Shown here: piece by piece, positions 2,268-61,033 of the stretch
Numbering within the stretch: position 1 is the stretch's first letter
How the letters are laid out: every line of letters begins with the position of its first letter
From: Gammaproteobacteria bacterium
GTDB lineage: Bacteria; Pseudomonadota; Gammaproteobacteria; JAABTG01
Direction: 5' to 3'
Assembly: GCA_034522055.1 (NCBI GenBank)
Contig: JAXHLS010000006.1
Span: 962,790 to 1,026,789 of the forward strand
Length of the DNA: 64,000 nucleotides
The notes under the pieces: generated by a model
What the model was told of the DNA's origin: nothing
The model's database searches: none
What the model saw: the letters and a program-made list of their open reading frames with translations, nothing else
Translations under genes and position numbers: made by a program

Positions 2268-4173
2268 TGCCTGCACGAGAAACTCAAAAGAGTTTATTGA
2301 TCAACGGCATAAGCTAATAATCGCGACGCGAAGAATGCGACGGTTCCGTTTGCTGGATTGCAAGATAAATCTGTAACGCATTGATCTGCATTGATATAAT
2401 GGCGGCGTAACCGGTGAGGGCCGGACGGTACAGGCGCACAAGGCCCTTGAGAGACGCAATCTTCGCCAGGATGAAATTCGTATGCGCAAGGTGATCGAGC
2501 CGCAAATGCAGATCGGCGAGCAGGACATCGGCGCGATTTGGCTCGATCCCAAATCGCGCGATGACATCCCGCAGCTCCTGCGGGGACTGCAGCACATCTA
2601 CACCACGCCCGCGTTGCGCGAGCGGGTTTTCGCGATCCTTGAAGAGGTGCGCCCGGTACGTGATAGCGAGGCAGAAAATGTCCTGGTGGCCCCTAACGCC
2701 GGTCGGCCGGGGATGTCGCAGTGGAAGATCCTGGTGCTTGGCGTACTGCGCCTGGGGCTCAGTGCCGACTACGACAGGGTCCGGGAACTGGCCAACGAGC
2801 ACAACACGATCCGCCAGTTCCTCGGGCACGGCGACTGGACCGACACCTATCTCTACCCGATGCAGACGCTACGGGATAATCTGCGCCTGTTCACCCCGGA
2901 GCTCCTGGACCGGATCAATCAAGAGGTGGTGCGTGCGGGGCACAAGGCGCTAAAAAAAAACCTAGAAGAAGGGCTCGTCGGGCGCTGTGACTCGTTCGTG
3001 GTGGAGACCGATGTGCATTTCCCCACCGACATCAACTTGCTGCTCGACGCCATCCGTAAGGTCATCGATTTGAGCACCGAACTGGCCGAACTCCACGCGC
3101 TGCCCGGTTGGCGTCAGCATGCCCACCATCAGCGCCAGTTTAAGCGCCAGTACCGAATCGTCCAGCGGCTCAAACACTCCACCTCCAAGGACGAAGACAA
3201 GCGTCAAGCCAAACTGCAGGATATCGCCGAGGCCCACGGCACCTACCTGGAACTGGCCGAGGACCACCTGACCCGTGCCGAGCAGATCCGCCAGAAAGTG
3301 CCGGCCTCCTGTGCGCTGAGCGAGGGGCTGCTGCGCGAGCTTGATGAATTCATGACCCACGCCAATCGGCAGATCGATCAGATCCGCCGCCGCGTGCTCC
3401 AGGGCGAGCGCATCCCCCACAATGAGAAGGTCTTCTCGTTGTTCGAGCCCCACACCGAGTGGATCAGCAAGGGCAAGGCCGGGGTGCCGGTGGAGTTGGG
3501 GTTGCGGGTGTGCGTGATGGAGGACAGCGACCGTTTCATCCTGCACCACCAGGTGATGCAGATGTGCACCGATGATCAGGTGGCCGTACCGATGGTTGAG
3601 GAGACGAAGGAGCGATTTGCGCCACTGCGCGCTGTTAGCATGGACAAGGGCTTCCACAGTCCAGCCAACCAGGCGGCCTTGGCTGAGCGTCTGGAGCGGG
3701 TGGTCCTGCCGAAGAAGGGTCGTCTCTCTCAGGCCGACAAGGTGCGCGAGAGTGATGAGGAATTTCTGCGCCTGCGCCATCGCCATTCGGCGGTGGAGTC
3801 GGCCATCAATGCCCTGGAGGTTCATGGTCTGGACAAGTGTCCGGACCACGGCATCGAGGGCTTCAAGCGCTATGTGGCGCTGGCCGTGCTCGCACGCAAC
3901 ATTCACCGCCTTGGCGCGCTGCTGCGTCAGCAAGAACAAGAGCGGGAGCGGCGAAGGCGCGGCCCCTACCGAAAGGCTGCCTGAGCAGCGCTCCGAAGCC
4001 GATACCGCGCCACGCGGACAGGAGAGGAGCGTCTGCACATCACCATCAATGCGAAGCATTCGCATTGGATGACGCCACGCATCTCAAAACAGTCGCCAAG
4101 GTGGAACACCGGCCATCAGTACCTGAGTGTCACGCTGGGAATTTGCCGGGAAATACGGGTTTTCGTGCAGGCA
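2268..4173 (+). mobile_element. Insertion sequence (1906 bp, IS4/IS5-superfamily, possibly IS1182-like) with ~11-15-bp terminal inverted repeats beginning TGCCTGCACGA
   Basis: A single 500-aa DDE transposase ORF is bounded by inverted termini (left TGCCTGCACGAGAAA; right, reverse-complemented, TGCCTGCACGAAAAC) and an 8-bp direct repeat. It interrupts an otherwise continuous helicase ORF. Confidence 0.7.
2482..3984 (+). CDS. DDE transposase, IS4/IS5 superfamily (DDE_Tnp_1-like)
   Basis: 500-aa ORF with DDE-transposase-like motifs (FVVETDVHFPTD, VSMDKGFHS, HSAVESAINALE, KRYVALAVLARNIHRLG); GC content is lower than the flanks. Confidence 0.75.
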   Translation: MRKVIEPQMQIGEQDIGAIWLDPKSRDDIPQLLRGLQHIYTTPALRERVFAILEEVRPVRDSEAENVLVAPNAGRPGMSQWKILVLGVLRLGLSADYDRVRELANEHNTIRQFLGHGDWTDTYLYPMQTLRDNLRLFTPELLDRINQEVVRAGHKALKKNLEEGLVGRCDSFVVETDVHFPTDINLLLDAIRKVIDLSTELAELHALPGWRQHAHHQRQFKRQYRIVQRLKHSTSKDEDKRQAKLQDIAEAHGTYLELAEDHLTRAEQIRQKVPASCALSEGLLRELDEFMTHANRQIDQIRRRVLQGERIPHNEKVFSLFEPHTEWISKGKAGVPVELGLRVCVMEDSDRFILHHQVMQMCTDDQVAVPMVEETKERFAPLRAVSMDKGFHSPANQAALAERLERVVLPKKGRLSQADKVRESDEEFLRLRHRHSAVESAINALEVHGLDKCPDHGIEGFKRYVALAVLARNIHRLGALLRQQEQERERRRRGPYRKAA

Positions 4174-4181
4174 CGAAGTAG
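4174..4181. repeat. 8-bp target-site duplication CGAAGTAG (right copy)
   Basis: See the left copy. Confidence 0.7.
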
Positions 4182-5614
4182 GTGTTGATAGTGCGTCCCG
4201 GCAACTGCCCCTCCACCTCGTCCTTGCGCCGGCGCAGCATGACGGGGCGCAGCCGCTCGTGAAGTTGGTCGAGGTTTTGGTAGCCGATGGCCCGCCCCTT
4301 GTCGTCCAACTGATAGAAGTCGCGGTTGAAGCGGAACAGCGGGCCGAAGATGTGGGGATCGAGAAACTCCGCGATGGAATAGATCTCGTCGATACGGTTC
4401 TCCACCGGGGTGCCGGTGAGGACGAAGGCATAGGGACTCTGCAGGCTCTTCACCGCCGCCGCGGTGCGCGTCTGCCAGTTCTTGATGCGCTGGGCCTCGT
4501 CGAGGATGACCACATCCGGGGCCAGGATGGTGTTGATGGCCGTCACGTCGGGGCGGATCTGCTCGTAGTTGGCGAGGTAGAAGAATGCCGGGGCCGCGTA
4601 CTCGCGCTCCCGCTCGGCCCGCGGCCCGTGGATGATGCGCGAAGGCAGGGTCGTGAACTTGGCGATCTGCTCCTCCCATTCGCCCTTCAGGGAGGCCGGC
4701 GACACCACCAGCACCCGCCGGATCCCGGCGCTGCGGCGCAACAGCTCGCAGGCCGCCACCGCCTGCACCGTCTTGCCCAGACCCATCTCGTCCGCCAGCA
4801 GGGCGCGGCCGGTGAGGGCCAGGTGCAGCATGCCCTCCTGCTGGTAGGGATAGAGGGCATGGTGCACCAGGTTGAGGTCGAGCCTGCCCGCCGCGATCTC
4901 CGCCTCCACGTGTTGGCGGTGGCGGCGCCGCTCCTCGCACCGATCCTGCTCTTCGAGCCAGGCGCGCAGGGCCGGCGAGATGCGGATGCGGCGGCGAGTC
5001 GCCGGATGGGCAGCGTCCACCGCCCGCAGCAGGGCGGGCAGGGTATCGAGGGGGTTGCCGGCGAGGATACCGTCCCCGCCATCGTACCCGGCAAGCAAGG
5101 CGCCGGCCCGGGAGCGGCCCTTGTCATGGGGTGCTTCCAGATGCACCCGTTGGTCCCGCCGGTCGAGGTATACCTCGAACCACGGGCTCCCCGCGGCGGC
5201 GGCCCGGACGAAGGCGCGACGCTGGCGGCTGCCAAGCCACTGCAGCACGGCCTCCACATGCTTGCAGGTACCGAGCCCGTTGACGCGGTGATCGGCGCAG
5301 TCGCAACTGTTGACCAGTGCCCCCAGGGAGCGGATCTCCACCCGATAGGCCTTGGCCCCCGATTGGACCCGGAAGTCCCCAAAGAAGGGATCGGCGCCGT
5401 CCACCGGCTCGATGGCCATGGGCTCCTGCTCGGCCCGCAGGCGCCGCCGCTCCACCTCGTCGGCGTCGGTGGTCAGCCATCCCGTGGGCCGGGGGCGTGC
5501 GCGCGGAGTCTTCGACTTCCTGGTCGTCCTGGGCCTGGTCTTGGGCGTAGTCCTGGGCATGACGTTAGACGTCCTCGTCCTGTGCGATACGGGGCATGGC
5601 CATGGGGTGTCCAC
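4174..5614 (-). pseudogene. N-terminal fragment of the SNF2-family helicase with a SWIM zinc finger and DEXH ATP-binding domain
   Basis: ORF 4130..5614 has a SWIM finger (CDCADHRVNGLGTCKHVEAV), Walker A/DEXH motifs (LADEMGLGKTVQAVA, VVILDEAQRIKN) and a K/R-rich N-terminus. The ORF ends 14 codons into the IS. The start may be the internal ATG at 5560 or 5419. Confidence 0.75.
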
Positions 5615-5751
5615 GATGGCCGGGGCCGAAAAGCGCGGGCAACGCTAGCACGCCCCCCCGACGCGGGCAAATAGCCCGCGCATACCTGCTCAAGTTGCAG
5701 CTCTGCAAGACCCAGACGTACCAGCCCCACGACCGCGAGCAACGTCAGCGC

Positions 5752-5835
5752 GTAGGTTGGGGTGAGGAACGAACCCCAACATGACCATGAATTCGACCAA
5801 AAATCGTTGGGGTTCGCAAGCTCACCCCAACCTAC
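5752..5835. other. 84-bp nested palindromic element with alternative pairings
   Basis: Outer arms GTAGGTTGGGGTGAG and CTCACCCCAACCTAC are a perfect 15-bp pair. Inner arms GAACCCCAAC and GTTGGGGTTC are a perfect 10-bp pair. The outer 5' arm can alternatively pair with the inner arm. Confidence 0.4.
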
Positions 5836-5842
5836 CATGCTC

Positions 5843-6420
5843 CTGGCAGCCGACGGGATCCCGGCGGGTGGCGGGCGGGATGTCGGTTGCCAGGAGCAAC
5901 CGACCTACATCCGTGCCCCGGGAACGGGCGGTGGGCGTACCTACGGGCCGGGATGTCGGGATGAATCCCGACCTACAAAAGCGCACCGAAATACGCGAGT
6001 GACGCGAAAAGGGAAAAGGTCAGGGAGGAGTGGCCGTTCGAAAAGGCGCAGCGGATCCACCGTTTCGGCGTCAGCAGAGCGGACGCACGGGTGGTAATCT
6101 TTTCCCATTTCCCATTTCCCATTTCCCATTTCCCATTTCCCATTCCCCCTGGGGAGAAGGACAGAGGCGTAGGTCGGCTGCTCTTGGCAGCCGACGGAAA
6201 CTCGGCGCTTTGCGGGCGCGGATGTCGGTTGCCAGGAGCAACCGACCTACATTCGTGCCGAAGGAACGGGCGGTGAGCGTATCTACGGGCCAGGATGTCG
6301 GGATGAATCCCGACCTACATTCGTGCCGAAGGAACGGGCGGTGGGCGTATCTACGGGCCGGGATGTCGGGATGAATCCGGACCTACATCCGTGCCAAAGG
6401 AATGGGCAGCGTATGCAGCC
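5843..6420. repeat. REP/BIME cluster (units GATGTCGG[GATGAATC/TTGCCAGGAGCAA]CCGACCTACATCCGTGCC, ~68-bp periodic sub-array)
   Basis: At least seven palindromic units occur between the helicase gene and fliK. Identical units recur at 26845..27058, 46189..46260, 46527..46552, 57201..57326, 60733..60767 and 61003..61028. Confidence 0.8.
5951..6210. repeat. Copy 1 of a ~300-bp MITE-like dispersed repeat (element A) containing a (GGGAAAT)5 microsatellite
   Basis: About 90% nucleotide identity, in reverse orientation, to 46189..46552 and 60733..61033. Contains TCCCATTTCCCATTTCCCATTTCCCATTTCCCATT. Bounded by REP palindromes. Confidence 0.8.
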
Positions 6421-6424
6421 TCGC

Positions 6425-7582
6425 TCATACGTAGGCATCCACCAGCCCCCGTGACGGGCCGGCGGTGGGCGGGGAGAGGCCGGGACCCTCATCGGCGCCG
6501 CCCGCCCCATGCCGGCCTCCGGTCCCTGCCCCACCGCCACCGCGTTCCTGATTCGCCGCAGCGTCACCGCCCGGATCGTCCCGCCCACCCGACACCGTGG
6601 CTTCGGCCAGTTGAATGCCATTCGCACCGAGCATGTCACGCAACCGGGGCATGGCCTGCTCCAGGGCCTCCCGCGTCGAGGCATGATTGGCATTGAAGAA
6701 GACACTCACCTCCTCGTTGCGCACCACCACCTTGACCTCCAGGGGACCGAGCTGGGGCGGGTTGAGTCTGATCTCGGCGTGCTGGGTACCCTGACCTGCA
6801 GTCATCCACAGCACCCGCTGACCCAGCTCATTGCCCCATTCGGGGCGGCCGACGGGGGTCTGGATGGTGGCTGCCGGCAGGTTCTGAAGCGGGGGTTCCG
6901 CGGCCCGCGTCACCGGCAACCCGGCCTGCTCGGGCCCCTTGGTAGCGCTTTGGCCCTGGGACGCGGCGGACTCCAGGGCGGCGAGGATATCTCCTCCCCC
7001 ACTCGCCAATCTGAGGCCTTCACCACCGGCGGCCGGCTGGAGGGACGTGATGGCAGACTTGTCGGGGCCACCCGCCGCCGGCAACGCAGTTTCCCTGCCT
7101 CCATCTGCCACCGTGTCCCCACCGCCCCGAGCAAACAATGCCGCCGGAACCATCTCCGCCTGGTCTTGCCCAACAGGCGGTGGTCCCTGTCCCGGGACAC
7201 CTGCTACCTTTCCCTCCGGTGCGCCGGGCGAGGGGGATGGCAGGGACGGCTGGGCACCGAGGAAAGCCAGGATGGCCTCCAGATCCGCCGCGGGGTCGCC
7301 ACCGGGCGACCCGCTGCCGTCCTGCAGCGGCAACGTCTGTGGCGGTAATGTCTCCAGCGGCAACGTATTGCCATCGCCGCCGGCAAGGAGTGGCAGCAAT
7401 ACTTGGGGCACATCTGCGTTGCGCAGGTCCTCCAGGGTCAGATCCCCGCCGGCCAGCAGCTGGGACAGCAGGTCCTGGAAACCGTGATTTTCCGCCGCCT
7501 CGCCCGTGACCTGCCTGGCGGGCAACAAGCCCCCAAGCAGGGCCATCAGGCCCTGGGGTACCGGCAAAGCCCCGTTGTCCAT
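6425..7582 (-). CDS. fliK: Flagellar hook-length control protein FliK
   Basis: Pro/Gly/Ala-rich N-terminus and a FliK C-terminal domain (WGNELGQRVLWM, AEIRLNPPQLGPLEVKV); downstream of fliJ. Confidence 0.75.
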   Translation of the reverse strand: MDNGALPVPQGLMALLGGLLPARQVTGEAAENHGFQDLLSQLLAGGDLTLEDLRNADVPQVLLPLLAGGDGNTLPLETLPPQTLPLQDGSGSPGGDPAADLEAILAFLGAQPSLPSPSPGAPEGKVAGVPGQGPPPVGQDQAEMVPAALFARGGGDTVADGGRETALPAAGGPDKSAITSLQPAAGGEGLRLASGGGDILAALESAASQGQSATKGPEQAGLPVTRAAEPPLQNLPAATIQTPVGRPEWGNELGQRVLWMTAGQGTQHAEIRLNPPQLGPLEVKVVVRNEEVSVFFNANHASTREALEQAMPRLRDMLGANGIQLAEATVSGGRDDPGGDAAANQERGGGGAGTGGRHGAGGADEGPGLSPPTAGPSRGLVDAYV

Positions 7583-7686
7583 GCCCGCTGCCTCTCAGAT
7601 GAAATGGTGACACCATCGGGAATGCAAATTGCGCGCCAACCACACCACCGTAGGACGCCCGTCATCCCTCGAGGGCGCCCCGCCGG

Positions 7687-8115
7687 CTACTTCTTGCGCA
7701 GATTGCGCTCGTCGGTCTCCCGATCCTCCCGCAGCAGCTGGTCCAGGTCTTCGGCCCGGCGCAGGCCGTCGATGGCGCCGTCCAGGGCCTTGGTGCGGGC
7801 GCGTTTGGCCAGCCACAGGGTGCGGTCGCGCTCCATCTGCCTGTGCTCGCCCGCCACCAGGCCTTCCAACTGCCCGATGGTCTCGTCCAACTTCGCCACG
7901 AAGTCCTGAAAGCGTTTGATCTCGTCGCCGCGCAGCCCCTGGCGGCCGCGTTCGCCGAAGCCGTCGAGGTACTCGGCCCGGTAGCGCCGCATCTCGTCCA
8001 GCTTGGCCTGATAGAGGCCGAGGCGCTCCCTGCTCTGCTCGAAACGCCCCGCGGCATCCTGTTGCCGGTGCTCGGCGATGCGGGCCAGGGGCTCCAGGCG
8101 TTTGGAGCGGGCCAC
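7687..8115 (-). CDS. fliJ: Flagellar export protein FliJ
   Basis: 142-aa charged coiled-coil protein (YQAKLDEMRRYRAEY) between fliI and fliK. Confidence 0.7.
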   Translation of the reverse strand: MARSKRLEPLARIAEHRQQDAAGRFEQSRERLGLYQAKLDEMRRYRAEYLDGFGERGRQGLRGDEIKRFQDFVAKLDETIGQLEGLVAGEHRQMERDRTLWLAKRARTKALDGAIDGLRRAEDLDQLLREDRETDERNLRKK

Positions 8116-8234
8116 CTAGCACCCCGTCCCGGCATCGCGGCCGGCCGGGCCCGGCGGTGGCGAATGACCGCCGCGCGCCGTGCCCATCCCGCCCTGCGGC
8201 ATGGTGGCAGTCATGGCCCGGTGGCTCCTCATCG

Positions 8235-9623
8235 TCATGCGTGCTGTGCCGTGGACTGCCGGTCCTGGCCGAGCCCCGTGGAGGTCCGCTCCAGCACCGT
8301 GTCCAGGTCGTGCAGGCTGTCCTTCAGGGACACCCGCTGATCCATATCCTGGGCCAGGAAGGACATGAAGGCGGGGTAGGCGGCGATGGCATGGTCCACT
8401 CGGGGCTCGGTGCCGGGGCTATAGGCCCCCACGTTGATGAGGTCTTCGTTGCGCCGGTACAGGGAATAGACCTGCTTGAAGCGCCGTGCCTTCTCCAGGT
8501 GGTCCTTGGCGGTGATGGCGGTCATGGCACGGCTGATGGACGACTCGATGTCGATGGCCGGGTAGTGGCCGGCATCGGCCAGATCCCGGGACATCCGGAT
8601 ATGGCCGTCGAGAATGGCCCGCGCCGCATCGGCGATGGGGTCCGCCTGCTCGTCCACCTCCGTCAGCACGGTGTAGAACGCGGTGATGGAACCACCCCCC
8701 TGCTCGCCGTTGCCGGCCCGCTCCACCAGTTGGGGCACGCGGGCGAAGACCGAAGGCGGGTAACCGCGGGTGGCGGGCGGTTCGCCGATGGCGAGGGCGA
8801 TCTCGCGCTGGGCCTGGGCGAACCGGGTGAGGGAATCCATCAGCAACAGTACCTGGTGACCCTGGTCACGGAAATACTCGGCGATGGTAGTGGCCAGCAC
8901 GGCCCCGTGGACCCGCATCAGCGGCGGGTCGTCGGCGGGGGACGCCACCACCACGGCACGGGCCATGCCCTGGGCCCCCAGGATCTGCTCGATGAACTCC
9001 TTCACCTCGCGGCCGCGCTCACCGATGAGCCCCACCACCACCACGTCCGCGGTGGTGAAGCGGGTCATCATACCCAGCAGCACGCTCTTGCCCACGCCGC
9101 TGCCCGCGAACAGCCCCATGCGCTGGCCCCGCCCCACGGTGACCAGGGCATTGATGGAGCGCACCCCGACGTCCAGGGGCTGATGGATGGGATGGCGGGC
9201 CAGGGGATTGATGACCCGCCCCCTCAGAGACACCTTGTGGCCCGACTTGACCACGCCCTTGCCGTCGAGGGGGCGCCCGGTGCCGCCCAGCACCCGGCCC
9301 AGCAGTTCATCGCCCACGAACACCTCGCCGCCCCGGCCTACTGGAACCACCCGGGCATTGGGCTCCATGCCGCGAATGTCGCCAATGGGCATGAGGTAGA
9401 GCCGATCACCCGCGAAGCCCACCACCTCGGCCTCCACCTCGCCGGTGGGCCCGGCGATGCGACAGCGGTCGCCGATGGCGGCTTTGCACCCCTCCGCCTC
9501 CAGGGTGAGGCCCACCATGCGTGTCAGGCGCCCCGCCACCGTCAGGGGCGGCGGCGTGGTCGCCCGTTCCACGAAGGGCTGCAGCCGCTCCAGCACCTGG
9601 TCGCTACGCTTCGATTCCGCCAC
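8235..9623 (-). CDS. fliI: Flagellum-specific ATP synthase FliI
   Basis: Walker A ([11 protein letters not shown]), Walker B ([12 protein letters not shown]) and an F1-ATPase-like fold. The start is set to the GTG at 9623, overlapping the fliH stop by ~20 nt. The ORF is open up to 9731, so the start is uncertain. Confidence 0.8.
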
Positions 9624-13379: not shown

Positions 13380-13580
13380 TGGGTCCGCTGCGCTCGACCC
13401 ACCCTACGTAAGCTGAGCGCTGGCGCGAAACCCCGCGTAGGGTGGAACAAGCGCAGCGGTTCCACCGCTCCGGGCCCCGGGCATCGCCCCGGCGGCCGCG
13501 ATGGGTCCGCTGCGCTTGATCCGCCCTACGTAACCCGGACTGCGGCGCGCGACCCAGCGTCGGGTGAAACGAGCGCCTCG
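13380..13580. repeat. Tandem duplication of a ~95-bp unit in the fleR-fliE intergenic region
   Basis: Unit 1 (GGGTCCGCTGCGCTCGACCCACCCTACGTAAGCTGAGCGCTGGCGCGAAACC...TGGAACAAGCGCAGCGGTTCCACCG) and unit 2 (GGGTCCGCTGCGCTTGATCCGCCCTACGTAACCCGGACTGCGGCGCGCGACC...TGAAACGAGCGCCTCGCTTCCACCG) are ~75% identical. Confidence 0.7.
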
Positions 13581-13590
13581 CTTCCACCGG

Positions 13591-26816: not shown

Positions 26817-27022
26817 GGGGGGAAGGATAATGCATATGGGGCGGGTTGTCGGACTGAAGTCCGACCTACAGTCCGACCTACAGCCCGACCTACAGAGACA
26901 CCACCACCGTCTGTTCCTGCGGCACCCGTGTAGGTCGGGATTCATCCCGACATCAAACCCCACCGCATGCACCACGGGCCGGATCGGAACCCCTATCCTT
27001 AGGTGTCGGGATAAATCCCGAC

Positions 27023-46188: not shown

Positions 46189-46552
46189 CTACATCCGTGC
46201 CGTAGGAACGGGCGGAGGGATGTCTCTGTAGGTCGGGATTCATCCCGACATTACCGCTCCGATTCTGTCGGCTGCCAAGAGCAGCCGACCTACGCCTCTG
46301 TCCTTCTCCCCAGGGAAAATGGGAAAGGGGAACGGGGAAAAGATTACCACCCGTGCGTCCGCTCTGCTGACGCCGAAACGGTGGATTAGCTGCGCCTTTT
46401 CGAACTGCCACTCCTCCCTGACCTTCTTCCTTTTCGCGCCTTTCGCGACTTTCGTAGTTACCGCTTTTGTTTTTTTAATAACCCTGACCTTCTCCCTTTT
46501 CGCGTCTTTCGCGGTTACGCTTTTAGTAGGTCGGGATTCATCCCGACATCCC
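46189..46552. repeat. Copy 2 of dispersed repeat A (MITE-like), with only 2-3 GGGAAA(T) units
   Basis: About 90% identical to 60733..61033, in the same orientation. Carries an extra internal duplication (CCTGACCTTCTTCCTTTTCGCGCC...CCTGACCTTCTCCCTTTTCGCG). Confidence 0.8.
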
Positions 46553-54683: not shown

Positions 54684-57074
54684 TTATTCCCCGGCGCCGG
54701 CCAGATCTGCCAGGGTCTGCTCGGCCAGGGCCTTTTCGCGGAACTGTACCTCCTGGGCCAGGGCCTTCTCCAGATGCTGCCGGGCGCCGGCCTGGTCGCC
54801 GGTCTCCAGCAACGCCATGGCGAGGTGAAAGTTCATCTCCGCCGAATCGGGGGCCTTGTCCACCGCCGCGCGTAGATGCTCCAGGGCGGCTTCGTGGTCC
54901 CCCTGCTTGTGGCGCACCCAGCCCAGGGTGTCCAGATAGGCCGCCTCGCTGGCCCCCTCCAGCACCGACACCAGCTCGCCGGCCCGCGCCAGGCCTTCGT
55001 CATCCGCCTGGTAGGTCACCAGCAGCATGGCCAGATTGTTGGCCGCGGCCCTGGAATCCGGGCTGTTTTCGACGGCCCTCTCGTAGACCGCGATGGCCTC
55101 GTCGGTGCGCCCCATCCCCTCGTAGAGACCTGCCAACCCCACCTGCAGCAACGCCGAGTCCGTGCCCTCGATGCCTGCCTTGAAGGCCTCCACCGCGCCC
55201 TCCCGATCCCCCTGGGCGAAACGCGCCAAGGCCAGGTTGCGGTGGGCGGACACCATGTCCGGCTTGCGCTCCAGGGCGCCGGCGAAGGCCTCCGCCGCGG
55301 CGCCATATTGCTGCTGCAGCAACAGCACCTCGCCCTTCAGATTACGGGGCGTGGCATTGTCGGGGTCCTCATCGATGGCGGTGTCGAGGCGTGCCAGAGC
55401 CTCGTCGTATTGCTGCTGCACGATGTAGGCCTTGATCACCGCCGCCAGGGGCTGGGAGGCAGTGGGCCCGCGCTCCAGGGACGCCTCGAAGGAGGCGATG
55501 CCCGCGTCCATGTCGCCCTGGGCCTGTTGGATCAGGCCCAGGAAGTAGTGGCCCTGGGGGCGGTCCGGATAGGCCTGAAGATAGCGATCCGCATACTGGC
55601 GGGCCCGGTCCAGCTCGTTGCGGGACATGTGGAGCTTGACCAGGCCCTCCAGGGCCCGGGCATCGGTGGGCGCGGTAGCCAACACCTTCTCCAGCTGCTC
55701 CCGGGCACCGTCCACGTCGCCCTGGCGCAACAGGGTCTCGGCGTAGGAGAAGCGCGTCTGCACGTCGTCAGGCGCGGCGGCCACCGCCTTGGCCATGGCC
55801 TCCTCCGCCAGGTCGTCTTCGCCGTTCATGCGATGGGCGGAGGCCAGGGCCCGCAACACCTTGGCGTTGTCAGGCGCGCTACGCAGCACCGCGCGATAGT
55901 CGGCGATGGCCGATGATGCGTCACCCTGGAGCATGGCCAGATCGCCCCGCAGGGCCAGGGCGTCCGCGTCCTTGGGATTCTCCTCTAGCACCTCCTCCGC
56001 CAGGCGGGCCGCCTGCTCCAGGTCCTTTTCACCCAGGGCCAGGCGCGCCAGTTGGTTGCGGGCCTTGAGACCGGACACCCCCAGGCCGTCGGCCGCGATG
56101 ATCTTGCGATAGGCGGCCTTGGCGTCGTCATGGCGATCGACGCGGGTGTAGAGCTGGCCCAGGGTGAGCCGCAGCTCATGGTTGTCCGGGGACGCCGCCA
56201 CGAAGTCCTCCATCACGCCGATACCCGCCGGCGTCCCTTCCGTCTTGGCCACCAGTTCCACCACGGCCAGCTTGGGTGTCATTTCGTCGGGATGCTCCGC
56301 CACCGCCCGATCCAGGATTTCCCGGGCCTTGGCGGTGTCGCCGGTCGTGGCGAAGAAGGACGCCAGCCTCACCTTGGCTCCCAGATCCTCCGGCTGCAGG
56401 GCCACCATCTCCTCCAGTACCCGGCCGGCCTCTTCCACGCGACCGCTATTGGCGTAGACATTGGCCAGGGTGAGGCGCAGGGCGGTGTTTTCGGGATGGG
56501 CCCCGATGCCCCGCTGCAGCAGGGCCTCGGCCTCGCCGGCAGCGCCGTCCCGCAGATGCAGGGAGGCCATGAGGGAGATGGCCTGGGCATGGTTCGGATC
56601 CGTGGCCAGGGCGGCCTCCGTGCTCTGCCGGGCCCCCGCCATGTCCCCTTCCTTGGCCAGCACGCCTGCCTTGATCACATGGGCATCGGCATTGGCCGGG
56701 TCGCCGGCCAGCACCTCTTCCACCAGTTCCAAGGCCTGGTCCGGCGCGTTGCCCACCAAATAGAGCTTGGCCAGGGCGTTACGCGCCTCCAGGTGCGCCG
56801 GGTCCTGCTCCACCACGGCCTTGTAATGCCCCACCGCGCCCCGCCACTGCTGCAGCTTCTCCAGGGTCTGGGCCAGTCCGAAGCGTCCCTCGATGTCTTT
56901 CGGGTCGATCTGCAGGACGTTCTTGAATTCGAGACGCGCCTTCTCGTAGTTCTCCGCCGCGAACAGGGTGCGCCCCTTCTCCAGATACTCCGCCTTGCGG
57001 TCCTCGGAACCGCCGCAGGCCGCCAGGGTTACCGCCATGGCCAGGGTGGCTATCAACTTCGTTGCGTATTTCAT
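54684..57074 (-). CDS. TPR-repeat lipoprotein (PrsT-like, PEP-CTERM-system-associated family)
   Basis: Lipobox LAAC after MKYATKLIATLAMAVT, then ~20 TPR units over 796 aa. Confidence 0.7.
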   Translation of the reverse strand: MKYATKLIATLAMAVTLAACGGSEDRKAEYLEKGRTLFAAENYEKARLEFKNVLQIDPKDIEGRFGLAQTLEKLQQWRGAVGHYKAVVEQDPAHLEARNALAKLYLVGNAPDQALELVEEVLAGDPANADAHVIKAGVLAKEGDMAGARQSTEAALATDPNHAQAISLMASLHLRDGAAGEAEALLQRGIGAHPENTALRLTLANVYANSGRVEEAGRVLEEMVALQPEDLGAKVRLASFFATTGDTAKAREILDRAVAEHPDEMTPKLAVVELVAKTEGTPAGIGVMEDFVAASPDNHELRLTLGQLYTRVDRHDDAKAAYRKIIAADGLGVSGLKARNQLARLALGEKDLEQAARLAEEVLEENPKDADALALRGDLAMLQGDASSAIADYRAVLRSAPDNAKVLRALASAHRMNGEDDLAEEAMAKAVAAAPDDVQTRFSYAETLLRQGDVDGAREQLEKVLATAPTDARALEGLVKLHMSRNELDRARQYADRYLQAYPDRPQGHYFLGLIQQAQGDMDAGIASFEASLERGPTASQPLAAVIKAYIVQQQYDEALARLDTAIDEDPDNATPRNLKGEVLLLQQQYGAAAEAFAGALERKPDMVSAHRNLALARFAQGDREGAVEAFKAGIEGTDSALLQVGLAGLYEGMGRTDEAIAVYERAVENSPDSRAAANNLAMLLVTYQADDEGLARAGELVSVLEGASEAAYLDTLGWVRHKQGDHEAALEHLRAAVDKAPDSAEMNFHLAMALLETGDQAGARQHLEKALAQEVQFREKALAEQTLADLAGAGE

Positions 57075-57200: not shown

Positions 57201-57326
57201 GTGGCACGGATGTCGGGAGTCATCCCGACATTCAACCCGGCCGCACACACCATGAGTCGGGCAGGAAATCCCGCCGGCGGGCTGTCGGGCTGTCGGGCTG
57301 AAGCCCGACCTACAGCCGACCTACAG
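57201..57326. repeat. REP cluster (GTCGGGAGTCATCCCGAC, GTCGGGCTGAAGCCCGACCTACAG, CCGACCTACAG)
   Basis: Same family as the other REP clusters. The last unit is the insertion target of the TniAB element. Confidence 0.8.
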
Positions 57327-57507
57327 TGTTGTATCTCAAATTATTCCACCAGTAATTTCCCGGTTTATTCCGAGCGAGTAGGCTGCAGTTTTCTCGGTTT
57401 GAGCGCTCCGGTGGAAGAGCGCGGGCAGGATAGGATGAGAAGAAGCTGGAGGTCTGGCGAGATGGGCGCCGCTTGTGGCGGCGGTTGCGGTTGGGAAAGA
57501 CTGGGAT

Positions 57508-57693
57508 TCAGTCCCAGAGGTCGGGCTGTCTGGGATTGGTGTTCTGGTAGTAGCGCGTGATCTCGGCGAAGTAGCGGTTTTCGAGGGTCTGGGCGATGGC
57601 GTAGAGGAGGTCAACCATCTGAGCGGCGGCCTCGTCGGAGAGGTGGTCGGGCAGGGTCTGATCGTCGTCGTTCATGGTGGTGTGGTGTCTCAC
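57508..57693 (-). CDS. Small element-borne hypothetical protein (61 aa)
   Basis: Overlaps the tniB-like stop (ATGA) at the distal end of the element. No family assignment. Confidence 0.35.
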   Translation of the reverse strand: MRHHTTMNDDDQTLPDHLSDEAAAQMVDLLYAIAQTLENRYFAEITRYYQNTNPRQPDLWD

Positions 57694-58490
57694 GGTTGCA
57701 GCTCGTCGAGCGCTGTCTGGAGGTGGGTCTCGGTGACGTGGTGTTGGTTGTCCAGCGCGGCGGCAGTGAGGGCGTAGTGGGCGATGCGGTTGACCTTGCG
57801 CGGAAGCCCGCGCGAGGCCTGGAACAGGGCCTCGGTTGCGGGTGGGGTGAAGATGGGGGCCTCGGCGCCGGCGAGGCGCAGGCGGTGAATGAGATAGTCA
57901 TCGAGTTCGTCGCGCGAGAGGCCGGGGAGGTGGTGGCGCACCACCAGTCGCTGGCTCAACGACTCGTGCACGGCCATGGCGAGGCGTCGGCGCAGCTCGG
58001 TGAGCCCGACCAGCAGCAGGCACAGGCGGTTGTCGGCATCCATGGCGTAGCTGGTCAAGAGGCGCAGATCCTCGAGCACGTCATTGCGTAGGTGCTGCGC
58101 CTCGTCGACGATCAACACGGGCAGCTGCTTGGCCTCCTGCACCAGGCGGGTGATCTCGACGCGGATGGCGCGGTAGGCGGTAGCGCGGGACCGCTCCGTG
58201 GGCAGGCCGAGTTCCCAGGCGATGGACTTGTACATATCGAGCACGTTGCCGGTGGACAGGGAGACGTAATAGACGCGGTACAGGCCGGGATGGAGTCCGG
58301 CGGTGACGTGCCGGCAGACGGTGGTTTTGCCGGAGCCGACCTCGCCGGTCAGCAGGCCGATGCCGCGCAGATCGATGAGGTGCGTGAGCCGGGCCTCGGC
58401 CTCGCGGCGGGCGGTGGAGGCATAGAGTTCATCGGCCTCGAGGGTATTCTCGAAGGGGAAGCGAGTGAACGCGAAGTGGCGCAGATACAT
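57690..58490 (-). CDS. TniB/ExeA-like AAA+ ATPase (transposition helper)
   Basis: Walker A (LLTGEVGSGKTT) and Walker B (VLIVDEAQHL). Its start overlaps the transposase stop. Confidence 0.75.
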   Translation of the reverse strand: MYLRHFAFTRFPFENTLEADELYASTARREAEARLTHLIDLRGIGLLTGEVGSGKTTVCRHVTAGLHPGLYRVYYVSLSTGNVLDMYKSIAWELGLPTERSRATAYRAIRVEITRLVQEAKQLPVLIVDEAQHLRNDVLEDLRLLTSYAMDADNRLCLLLVGLTELRRRLAMAVHESLSQRLVVRHHLPGLSRDELDDYLIHRLRLAGAEAPIFTPPATEALFQASRGLPRKVNRIAHYALTAAALDNQHHVTETHLQTALDELQP

Positions 58491-59836
58491 TAGTCGTTCT
58501 CCTCATTGTGCGGGTTGTCGAAGGCCCCGAGGGTGAGACGCGACGGGGGCGGTTCGGAGGCTGGGGTATCGGTGTCGAGGCGCCAGGAGGGCCGGTCGCG
58601 GCGCACGGTGGTGTTGGCATAGGCATCGAGCGGCGTGGCCTGTCCTGCCGGCTGGCCTTTATGGACCACGGTCAGGGGCCGGGTGGGCGGCACGGCGGGG
58701 TCGTACTGTAAGGTCACGGTCTCGCCGACGAGCACGGCGTCGACCTCATAGACGTGGCCGTTCAGGCTCACGGTGCGGTCGTTCATGACCCGGCGCTTGG
58801 TCTCGCAGAGGAACAGCGCATCGAGGCCGGGATCGGGGAAGCGGATCTGATCGCCGACCAGGGCCCACTGTTCGAGGGGCGTTTTGCCGTCGAGGCCGCG
58901 GTGCGGGGTGTGGTGATACTCGCCCTCGATGAAGGCCCACAGGCGTCGGTTGAGGGCCTCGAGGCTCACCGTATCCTCAGCGGTGAGCTGGGTGAGCAGC
59001 TGTGCTCGGACGGTGCGGAACCAGCGTTCGATTTTGCCCTTCCCCTGAGGTTGATGGGGTCGGGCGTGGATCAGCGCCGTGCCGAGCCTGGCGCAGACGA
59101 GGGCGAGTTGGCGGGAGCGGTAGTTGGCGCCGTTGTCGACGTAAAGGCGCTGGGGGATCCCGCGGCGGATGAGAGCCTGCTTGAACACCGGCAGGAAGGC
59201 GCCGGTGTTTTCGGCGAAGGCGAAGGCCGCATAGGGGATGACGCGGGTGGCGTCATCGATGAAGGCGATGAGATAGGTCTTTCTGCGCCGGCCCCGCCCA
59301 TCAGCGGCGGTGATGCCATGCATCACATCGCTCATCCACAGCTCGTCGGCGTACTGGAAGGCGAAGCGCCGCCGATCGGTGCCGATGGGTGCATCGGTCT
59401 TCTTGACCATGAGCCCTTCGCGGGTGAACAGACGGTGCACGGTGGAGGCGGGCAACGGCTGCTCGGCCGGGACCAGGCCCTGCTCGCGTGCGTGTTTGAT
59501 CACTGCGCGCACTGACAGCTTCGGATGCCCCTCTTTGATGGCGCACAGCGCTTCGGCCACGGAGTCGGGCAGTCGCCGGGGCTGCCCCCGATCGGCCCGT
59601 GGCTTGGGCAACAGCGCGTCGAAGCCGCCGCGCCGATAGTGCTTGAGCCAGTCGCGGATCGTCTCGGCGGCCACGCGGGAGCGACGGCTGCCGGGGATCA
59701 CATAGTCCTTGTCTGCCTTGGCGCGCAGCCGCTCGGTGATGCCGGCACTGCCCGGGGGCCAGTGTACGAGGTCGGCGATCAGGCCGTAGCGGAACAGGGC
59801 CACCGCCTGGCGGTGGTCATCATCAGGATCAGTCAT
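58490..59836 (-). CDS. Mu-type DDE transposase (retroviral-integrase catalytic core + Mu-transposase C-terminal domain; TniA/TnsB-like)
   Basis: N-terminal HTH, DDE residues (WMSDVMHG, LYVDNGANY, HQPQGKGKIERWFRT) and a C-terminal beta-barrel (DRTVSLNGHVYEVDAVLVGETVTLQYD). Confidence 0.8.
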   Translation of the reverse strand: MTDPDDDHRQAVALFRYGLIADLVHWPPGSAGITERLRAKADKDYVIPGSRRSRVAAETIRDWLKHYRRGGFDALLPKPRADRGQPRRLPDSVAEALCAIKEGHPKLSVRAVIKHAREQGLVPAEQPLPASTVHRLFTREGLMVKKTDAPIGTDRRRFAFQYADELWMSDVMHGITAADGRGRRRKTYLIAFIDDATRVIPYAAFAFAENTGAFLPVFKQALIRRGIPQRLYVDNGANYRSRQLALVCARLGTALIHARPHQPQGKGKIERWFRTVRAQLLTQLTAEDTVSLEALNRRLWAFIEGEYHHTPHRGLDGKTPLEQWALVGDQIRFPDPGLDALFLCETKRRVMNDRTVSLNGHVYEVDAVLVGETVTLQYDPAVPPTRPLTVVHKGQPAGQATPLDAYANTTVRRDRPSWRLDTDTPASEPPPSRLTLGAFDNPHNEEND

Positions 59837-59882
59837 CGGATCTTCTCTCGGTTATGAGCCCTTGGGCCCGGGAGAGGAGACG

Positions 59883-60392
59883 TTACGGCGGAGAACGCGG
59901 CGGATCAGGCCCCAGGGGTTGTTGGGTGGCCAAATTGGGATCACCGTGGGCGGTTGCCCGGGGACAAAACCCCACCGGCGTCGGCAGTTGAGGCAGCTGC
60001 CGGGCCGCCGAAGCACGCAGCGCCATCAGCACGGTCTCATGGCCGAGATGGCCACGAAGGTGAGTGACGGTCGCGAGGCAGCCGGCCAGTTGGTCAGGCA
60101 GAAGAGCGATGACGATGAGCAAGAAACGGTGCACCAAGACAATGCGCCGGCGTATCCAGCGCAGCGCCCCCGGCAGCTCGATATCCAGGCGCAAGGTGCT
60201 TGCCGCCGCTTCCATGCTCGGCGCCTGCTCGGCGACGGCCACCACGTGTTCCAGCTCGTTGAGCGTACCGGGCAGCCGTGCCGCCAGATGGTCCGGCAAC
60301 AGACTGAAGGTGGTGTGACTCTCAGGGCAGTACCAGCGGGCGATTCGTGTCCCCGCCGGCGTCTTGCGCTCGTAGGTGCCGTGGCGGGCCAA
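59883..60392 (-). CDS. Element-borne hypothetical protein (169 aa)
   Basis: First ORF of the four-gene unit, 47 nt upstream of the transposase gene. Contains YCPESHTTFSLLPDHLAARLPGTLNELEH. No family recognised. Confidence 0.4.
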   Translation of the reverse strand: MARHGTYERKTPAGTRIARWYCPESHTTFSLLPDHLAARLPGTLNELEHVVAVAEQAPSMEAAASTLRLDIELPGALRWIRRRIVLVHRFLLIVIALLPDQLAGCLATVTHLRGHLGHETVLMALRASAARQLPQLPTPVGFCPRATAHGDPNLATQQPLGPDPPRSPP

Positions 60393-60732
60393 CGAGCAAC
60401 CACCACGAGGATGGTTTGGGCAGCGAGAGAACTTGCCTCCCGCCAGGCTTGGCGGTTAACGTAATCCTCGCTGGTGTGCCCCGTTTGGAATCGAAGCTGC
60501 ACCGGCCACGGCCCGGCGGCTGTCACCGCGCGGGCCTTTTCCTTTCTTCTCACTTATCGGTAAGTAGAGATTACCGGCTCTGCCCCGATCAGCGAAAGCC
60601 TCAACATCCACCGGCGACACCCCTGCCCGACGACTTCCCGGAATACTCTCTCTGACCAGAGGCTTCACCAGCGGGACAAACCGAGAAGATCCGACTGGTA
60701 TCCAACGCTTTAATCTGCGAAACAACATACAG

Positions 60733-61033
60733 TCTGTAGGTCGGTTGCTCTCGGCAACCGACATCCGCGCCCGCAAAGCGCCGAGTTTCCGTCGGCTGCC
60801 AAGAGCAGCCGACCTACGCCTTTGTCCTTCTCCCCAGGGGAAATGGGAAAGGGGAAACGGGAAATGGGAAAAGATTACCATCCGTGCGTCCGCTCTGCTG
60901 ACGCCGAAACGGTGGATTCGCTGCGCCTTTTCAAACGGCCACTCCTCCCTGACCTTCTCCCTTTTCGCGTCATTTCGCGTCTTTCGCGGTTACGCTTTTA
61001 GCCTGTAGGTCGGGATTCATCCCGACATTCAAC
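60733..61033. repeat. Copy 3 of dispersed repeat A (MITE-like), with (GGGAAA(T/C))~4
   Basis: Bounded by the REP units CTGTAGGTCGGTTGCTCTCGGCAACCGACAT and CTGTAGGTCGGGATTCATCCCGACAT. Immediately adjacent to the TniAB element's TSD. Confidence 0.8.

Follow-up and report, generated by a model that had tools for sequence, protein, structure and literature searches.

A probable Tn6049-like transposon, with an IS481-related transposase and an ExeA-type ATPase, at a REP junction in a gammaproteobacterial genome

We analyzed a stretch of 64,000 nucleotides (nt) of contig JAXHLS010000006.1 (hereafter the window) from a gammaproteobacterial metagenome-assembled genome (MAG), GCA_034522055.1, which carries a compact, cargo-free transposon of 3401 bp at window positions 57327-60727. 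We consider it highly probable that this element is a Tn6049-like transposon, in which an IS481-related DDE transposase is combined with an ExeA-type ATPase and a DUF6431-type protein, and that its position among repetitive extragenic palindromes (REPs) does not reflect obligatory targeting. The Tn6049-like type is already known, widespread and poorly studied, and the window element adds a member to it. A preliminary description of the window had presented the element as a TniA/TniB-type transposon targeting the exact center of a REP palindrome. Its account of the unit and its ends was borne out, and its family assignment and targeting claim were not.

Boundaries and ends of the element

The boundaries of the transposon were read directly from the sequence. 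Its outer tips are TGTTGT...ACAACA, and its four genes, open reading frame (ORF) 1, transposase, ATPase and ORF4, are co-directional on the minus strand and form one operon. The features of the element and its immediate surroundings are as follows (lengths of proteins in amino acids, aa).

57291-57326, plus strand: first REP unit, with the hairpin GTCGGG-CTGAAG-CCCGAC and the tail CTACAG, then a tandem 11-nt half-copy, CCGACCTACAG (read directly)
57322-57326: first copy of the target-site duplication, TACAG (read directly)
57327-57420, minus strand: gene-distal end of the element ("right" in gene orientation), with TGTTGTATCTCAAATTA at 57327-57343
57508-57693, minus strand: ORF4, a conserved small helical protein of 61 aa from a GTG start, or 55 aa if counted from the ATG that gene callers choose (ORF list, conservation)
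57690-58490, minus strand: AAA+ ATPase of 266 aa, ExeA/GspA-like, with Walker A GEVGSGKT and Walker B LIVDEAQ (Pfam AAA_22)
58490-59836, minus strand: DDE transposase of 448 aa, with an N-terminal helix-turn-helix (HTH), an RNase-H (rve) core and a C-terminal six-strand beta domain
59883-60553, minus strand: ORF1, a divergent DUF6431-type protein with a zinc ribbon and helices, 223 aa in intact copies (intact in contig L081)
60633-60727, minus strand: ORF1-proximal end of the element ("left" in gene orientation), with TGTTGTTTCGCAGATTA at 60711-60727 on the minus strand
60728-60732: second copy of the target-site duplication, TACAG (read directly)
60734-60763, minus strand: second REP unit, in the opposite orientation, with a CTGTAG tail and the hairpin GGTCGGTTGC-TCTC-GGCAACCGAC (read directly; an inverted repeat)

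The terminal repeats, TGTTGTATCTCAAATTA and, in reverse complement, TGTTGTTTCGCAGATTA, were identical at 14/17 and 15/21 positions. The terminal pattern matched twice in the window, both times at the element ends, with 0 matches expected by chance; TGTTGTTTCGCAGATTA and TAATTTGAGATACAACA are the element-end junction sequences. Further inward, there were exactly two copies of TTCTCGGTTTG, inverted relative to each other and located 64 and 40 nt from the two ends. The subterminal motif TTYYCGGTTT was present in two copies in the right end (57357-57366 and 57391-57400) and in a single copy in the left end (60678-60687). About 95 nt of each end were conserved among close relatives, and the module ACCAGT-N5-TTCYCGGTTTRT recurred within these conserved stretches, with a single copy on the ORF1 side and two copies on the other side. 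The repeated modules are plausible transposase-binding sites, as had been suggested before for the subterminal repeat TTCTCGGTTTG.

The termini were independently supported by Logan contig L081 (SRR26473340), which encodes the exact window transposase sequence. This contig of 3402 bp starts with TGTTGT, ends with ACAACA and carries zero flanking bases, thus spanning the element from terminus to terminus. Relatives in genomes with multiple copies also aligned to the same TGTTGT/ACAACA ends. The 3401-bp unit, its imperfect inverted repeats and the 5-bp duplication therefore stand as first described.

Transposase and ATPase

The transposase contained the Pfam domains HTH_32 and rve and showed a borderline match to Mu-transpos_C; 6078 relatives were found, most of which contain PF09299. 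Among solved proteins its best relative by sequence was TnsB of a CRISPR-associated transposon, and TnsB was also the best match by fold. In the AlphaFold model (predicted local distance difference test, pLDDT, 74), a six-strand beta domain was formed by residues 344-402, and the extra C-terminal beta-barrel and tail, of ~125 aa, resemble those of TnsB, IstA and MuA. The earlier reading of this protein as a DDE transposase with a Mu/TnsB-type C-terminal barrel was thereby upheld. The best curated NCBIfam model was that of IS481, with 203.5 bits over residues 50-323, below its cut-off of 224.

The ATPase matched Pfam AAA_22 (1.6e-24) and had no TniB or IstB match in Pfam. The designation "TniB/ExeA-like" was thus correct in its ExeA half and not in its TniB half (Tn402 TniB, E 0.71), and an IstB-like identity, which would have spoken for IS21, was not found. 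The sole sequence match in the PDB was MuB (8xvb, 1.5e-4), and the best phage family was PHROG 296, "DNA transposition protein" (93 bits). The start of the ATPase gene overlaps the transposase stop, and translation of the two is coupled.

The best NCBIfam match of the ATPase was the XrtA/PEP-CTERM system-associated ATPase (158 bits, below cut-off), and the neighboring 796-aa gene, on the minus strand at 54684-57074, was identified as PrsT of the XrtA/PEP-CTERM system (366 bits, above cut-off). We rejected the ATPase as part of this adjacent system, since it accompanies the transposon in many phyla. The juxtaposition with PrsT is coincidental and could mislead annotation.

ORF1 and ORF4

The first gene of the operon proved to be frameshifted in the window. 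Relative to L081, one C is missing between 60430 and 60431, and the extra C in L081 restores a continuous ORF1 of 223 aa. The four-gene set described earlier was therefore right, and the 169-aa ORF listed in it as a full gene is the 3' fragment of the frameshifted ORF1. A programmed -1 frameshift was considered and rejected, since L081 and the relatives keep a continuous, long ORF1.

Homologues of ORF1 formed 990 clusters at 50% identity, all without a name. The preliminary description had recommended a profile search with the 169-aa protein, and profile-profile comparison of ORF1 (hhalign) identified DUF6431 with a probability of 97.3% (E 1.8e-11). The two share the motif C..H/C...HG.Y.R...I.R..C...T.S.LP. 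ORF1 falls below the Pfam detection threshold for DUF6431, as a divergent branch, and has the ligand pattern CxxH...C...CxxxH, as opposed to CxxC...CxxC in DUF6431. Its AlphaFold2 model was confident (pLDDT 92), and comparison with solved structures found no relative.

ORF4 had no match in Pfam, NCBIfam or PHROG. Its motif LPxxLSDEAAAQMVxLLYxIAxxLExxY...RYY was conserved in relatives from three phyla.

Relationship to known transposons

Tn6049 was described in Cupriavidus metallidurans CH34 as a 3.5-kb element present in 12 copies, all with a "gspA" ATPase (PMC2864759), and with TGT-initiated 12-bp inverted repeats and 4-bp direct repeats (PMC4739549). Its transposition module "could not be categorized" (PMC6210171). 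It is also found on P. aeruginosa plasmid pHS87a. The window element has a similar size (~3.5 kb) and the same order of four co-directional genes: an accessory ORF, an "IS481 family" DDE transposase, a "gspA"/AAA_22 ATPase and a small ORF. Both elements have TGT-initiated imperfect inverted repeats and short direct repeats, of 5 bp in the window and 4 bp in Tn6049. In BLASTP, the transposases were 27% identical over 451 columns, which is the full length (E 4e-29), and the ATPases 28% identical over 209 columns (E 5e-15). The two elements differ in that their core proteins share just 27-28% identity, and in their terminal sequences, TGTGCATAAGCA in Tn6049 and TGTTGTTTCGCA in the window element.

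Closer counterparts were found on Cupriavidus necator pBB2, in Acidithiobacillus caldus and on Geobacillus plasmids, where a DUF6431 gene, an "IS481 family" DDE transposase, an AAA ATPase and a small ORF likewise follow one another. The transposases of these units were ~40% identical and their ATPases 33-35% identical to those of the window element, and the DUF6431 protein of the pBB2/Geobacillus branch is homologous to the window ORF1, which is the divergent one. In the literature on IS481 with ExeA and on DUF6431, no description of this DUF6431 branch was found.

The IS481 family comprises elements of ~1-1.3 kb with a single transposase gene (ISfinder definition). The window element resembles it in the best-scoring curated model (HTH and RNase-H core), the TGT/ACA tips and the variable short duplications of the group. 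It differs from IS481 in a transposase score below the family cut-off, in its 3401 bp with four conserved genes, in the extra barrel and tail, and in an obligatory ATPase partner.

Similarity to the Tn5053/Tn402 group was slight. TniA of R751 aligned with the window transposase over a catalytic-core stretch of just 115 residues (35 bits), TniB of Tn402 had no similarity to the ATPase, and TniQ of Tn402 matched the ORF1 profile with a probability of 0.8%. The element had no TniB, TniQ or resolvase match in Pfam, and no resolvase ORF. The absence of a TniQ/TnsD-like protein had been noted before and is confirmed by these searches; the TniA/TniB designation, set against the best curated match to IS481, was not sustained. 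Resemblance to Tn7-like elements was limited to the fold of TnsB, and no TnsA or TniQ domains were present. IS21 is marked by a DnaC-like IstB ATPase and by an IstA that passes the family threshold, and by these markers the window element does not belong there.

With Mu, Tn7, Tn5053 and IS21 together, the window element shares a two-component logic, duplications of ~5 bp and several repeats resembling transposase sites at asymmetric ends; MuB of Mu is the closest solved ATPase by sequence. It differs from them in having no TnsA, TniQ/TnsD, TniR or phage genes, and in that the duplication of the group is not fixed at 5 bp.

The REP setting of the insertion

The REP core CCGACCTAC occurred 18 times in the window, against 0.41 expected. 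The other copies define the anatomy of the unit, a hairpin GTCGG-loop-CCGAC followed by a tail CTACA(G/T). The last 5 nt of the REP stretch at 57291-57326 are the duplicated target, TACAG. Removal of the element and one TACAG predicts an empty site of CCGACCTACAG-T-CTGTAGGTCGG, which is the junction of two convergent REP tails, not a single REP. The central T is directly preceded by the duplicated 5 bp, which places the insertion ~3 bp off the palindrome center. A palindrome is thus restored, as had been reported, and neither the single REP nor the exact center of that report was found. The window contained no further tail-to-tail REP pair.

The REPs of the window showed features of their own. 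At 26861-26896 and 57305-57326, the 3' half of the REP, (T/C)CCGACCTACAG, is tandemly duplicated as 11-12-nt units, three and two times, respectively, which suggests local expansion of the REP tails themselves, without involvement of the transposon.

Insertion sites of relatives

In a scan of one genome per species, 374 relatives were found, including genomes with many identical copies. The aligned copies formed units of 3.5-4.4 kb, all with TGTTGT...ACAACA ends. Transposition bursts have recently taken place in other genomes, one of which has at least 22 identical copies. These at least 22 copies belong to a 4380-bp variant in the alphaproteobacterial MAG CBDEUT (L040, element at 4116-8495, and 21 sister loci), which has two extra ORFs (241 and 171 aa) downstream of the ATPase with no Pfam match.

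Among 46 paired insertion sites of distant relatives, the duplication was 5 bp in 26, 4 bp in 14 and 6 bp in 6. The target bias over these sites was weak and confined to a C at the first duplicated base. None of them had a REP-like context, and many were in coding DNA. An element whose transposase is 85% identical to that of the window was recovered on 18 metagenome contigs with ~28 different flanks, none of which was REP-like. Likewise, ~10 sites of other close relatives were not REP-like, with a single exception. Other copies, which had been expected to carry 5-bp duplications within REPs, thus had duplications of 4-6 bp, mostly 5 bp, and nearly all lay outside REPs. Duplication-based pairing of ends was unreliable in single-copy MAG loci, where it gave no pair or a spurious one, and many loci were chimeric assemblies. 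A metagenome scan with the 17-mer TGTTGTTTCKCAGATTA gave chance matches, this sequence being too short, with relatives at 2 of at least 120 loci.

The exception was an independent close relative, an element common to loci L088, L089 and L090, which has one site at a similar REP with different neighboring genes. In gene orientation, its left flank (L088) and right flank (L090) give (C)CTGTG as the duplicated sequence, with GGTCGGTCGCTTTCGGC directly after it, and the site belongs to a 59-bp tandem array of REP-like character. In gene orientation the window reads CTGTA and then GGTCGG; register and orientation agree between the two sites, and their common form is CTGTR followed by GGTCGG. The two same-register REP insertions are suggestive, not conclusive.

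Other copies of the window element itself were sought through its proteins and neighbors. Exact-protein look-ups with the window transposase and the 169-aa ORF returned L081 only, and no other copies from the 3.72-Mb contig of the source MAG. Look-ups with the flanking genes, PrsT and DUF2288, returned contigs of the L081 sample that end in REPs short of the element, and no empty site was obtained from them. In a de Bruijn assembly, a contig that coincides exactly with a repeat would point to several copies in the sample, with flanking sequences that already diverge at their first base. The lack of a shared flank on L081 thus argues against a TACAG/REP context common to all copies.

IS1397 and ISKpn1 are found almost exclusively in REPs or bacterial interspersed mosaic elements (BIMEs). 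The Tn6049-like group resembles them in that REP-type repeats surround the window copy and one independent relative, and differs in that the great majority of sites are in ordinary DNA, coding sequence included. Instead of most copies in REPs or BIMEs at a fixed position, only the two same-register cases were found. The Tn6049-like family has no target-sequence specificity beyond the weak C bias at the first duplicated base. Obligate REP-center targeting is refuted for the family by the 46 paired sites and the ~28 and ~10 flanks or sites of closer relatives, all but one non-REP, and is unsupported for the window element.

Proposed mechanism and alternative explanations

The transposase would bind the terminal and subterminal repeats, cut at the TGT/ACA tips and join the 3' ends to target DNA with a stagger of ~5 bp. 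The ATPase would act like MuB, TnsC or IstB, as an ATP-dependent binder of target DNA that recruits and activates the transposase, and ORF1 would bind DNA in an accessory or regulatory role. The spot between the two convergent REPs is best regarded as one tolerated intergenic landing site, possibly with a mild structural preference.

Several points weigh against the Tn6049-like assignment and the model built on it. Comparison of ORF1 with Tn6049 ORF1 gave an hhalign probability of 0.2%, and ORF4 gave no BLASTP alignment with Tn6049 ORF4, so that the grouping rests on the two core proteins and the architecture. The role given to the ATPase is drawn from its resemblance to MuB and to phage B proteins, which is weak, and from the structural kinship of the transposase with enzymes that depend on an ATPase. 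Copy-out/paste-in transposition is used by IS481 and IS3 relatives. Finally, two independent REP insertions in the same register are more than expected by pure chance.

The last point bears on a facultative preference for REP tails, which we regard as a tentative possibility. Here insertion would be broad and would favor the point where tail and stem meet in REP hairpins of the GTAGGTCGG type, as could happen if the ATPase sensed DNA structure or if ORF1 bound there. The shared register and orientation at the window site and the L088/L090 site, beside different genes, agree with it, as does the right flank of locus L213, which starts with CACGGTCGGACC. The clear cases, however, number 2 among ~40 flanks of close relatives, and REP clusters are neutral intergenic DNA in which insertions survive, so that selection alone can enrich REP sites. 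The hosts of other copies may also have no such REPs, which leaves the denominator uncertain. A bolder version is doubtful: that the Tn6049-like/DUF6431 elements are a distinct, very large, unnamed family of heteromeric transposons, with an IS481-like core and TnsB-type barrel, a MuB-like ExeA-type ATPase and a new zinc-ribbon DNA-binding protein, and that this protein or the ATPase steers insertion to the REP tail/stem junction in REP-rich hosts.

It is quite unlikely that the element moves by copy-out/paste-in in the manner of IS481 and IS3, with the ATPase as a regulator or passenger and not a target activator. The N-terminal and catalytic regions do score best against IS481 and IS3 models, no resolvase or TnsA-like nuclease is present, and the duplications vary in length, which is typical of IS481 relatives (PMC10045372). 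The ATPase and transposase genes, however, are translationally coupled and stay together without exception across phyla, the ATPase matches MuB and a phage "DNA transposition protein", and the transposase has the extra barrel and tail of the ATPase-dependent TnsB, IstA and MuA. The original proposal of a TniA/TniB (Tn5053/Tn7-class) element aimed at the REP-palindrome center, with the two small ORFs as target selectors, accounts for the 5-bp duplication, the TGT ends, the perfectly restored palindrome, the match to TnsB and the one relative at the same REP register, but is highly improbable given the weak or absent Tn402 similarities, the missing Pfam matches, the IS481 match, duplications of 4-6 bp, ~80 flanks or sites of relatives outside REPs and the absence of a shared flank on L081.

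Other observations on relatives and repeats

Some relatives were associated with other mobile genes. In locus L017 (3736-4029 and 7523-8383), a 78%-identical relative lies between two inverted copies of a group II intron-type reverse transcriptase gene, and its flanks have no common duplication, a pattern that points to recombined copies or to an intron, itself repeated, as the insertion target. In locus L092 (6673-10768), the transposase of a relative is truncated at 276 aa by three consecutive tyrosine-recombinase genes, which resemble a recombinase-in-trio, and another relative, in locus L233 (5882-7347), has two tyrosine-recombinase genes just downstream. A close relative in locus L226 adjoins a Y1_Tnp (PF01797) gene at 110-367; this family includes REP-associated tyrosine transposases, and the flanks there were not REP-like. 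In Halochromatium glycolicum (locus L034, ~6600-8799), ~2.2 kb of foreign DNA lies within the ATPase region, and similarity to the window resumes beyond it.

The window also contains two longer repeats. One, of ~180 bp, occurs at 46263-46443, at 60787-60974 and, as an inverted copy, near 5985-6200, with 91-94% identity between copies, and one copy directly adjoins the transposon. The repeat opens with a REP hairpin; a tract rich in GGGAAA(T/C) and the conserved block GATTACCA.CCGTGCGTCCGCTCTGCTGACGCCGAAACGGTGGATT... come next. It could be an element like a miniature inverted-repeat transposable element or a REP-associated composite. Rfam gave no match in the window, this repeat included. The second, an unrelated 88-nt repeat family (TGGGTCCGCTGCGCTCGACCCACCCTACG...), has 2 copies 122 nt apart at 13380-13589.

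Significance

For annotation, the four genes should be treated as one mobile unit. The "XrtA/PEP-CTERM-like ATPase" lies here outside the neighboring PEP-CTERM locus, and the 169-aa ORF is a frameshift fragment. The window element itself is ordinary genome baggage. The group to which it is assigned is abundant, with 990 ORF1 clusters, more than 6000 transposase relatives and at least 22 copies in one MAG, and it carries the name Tn6049 without a mechanism or family assignment. Its members combine a catalytic core of the IS481 type with the ATPase-assisted scheme known from Mu, Tn7 and IS21, and encode in ORF1 a confidently folded protein without a solved structural relative. Characterizing the Tn6049-like group would bridge simple insertion sequences and the regulated Tn7/Mu systems.

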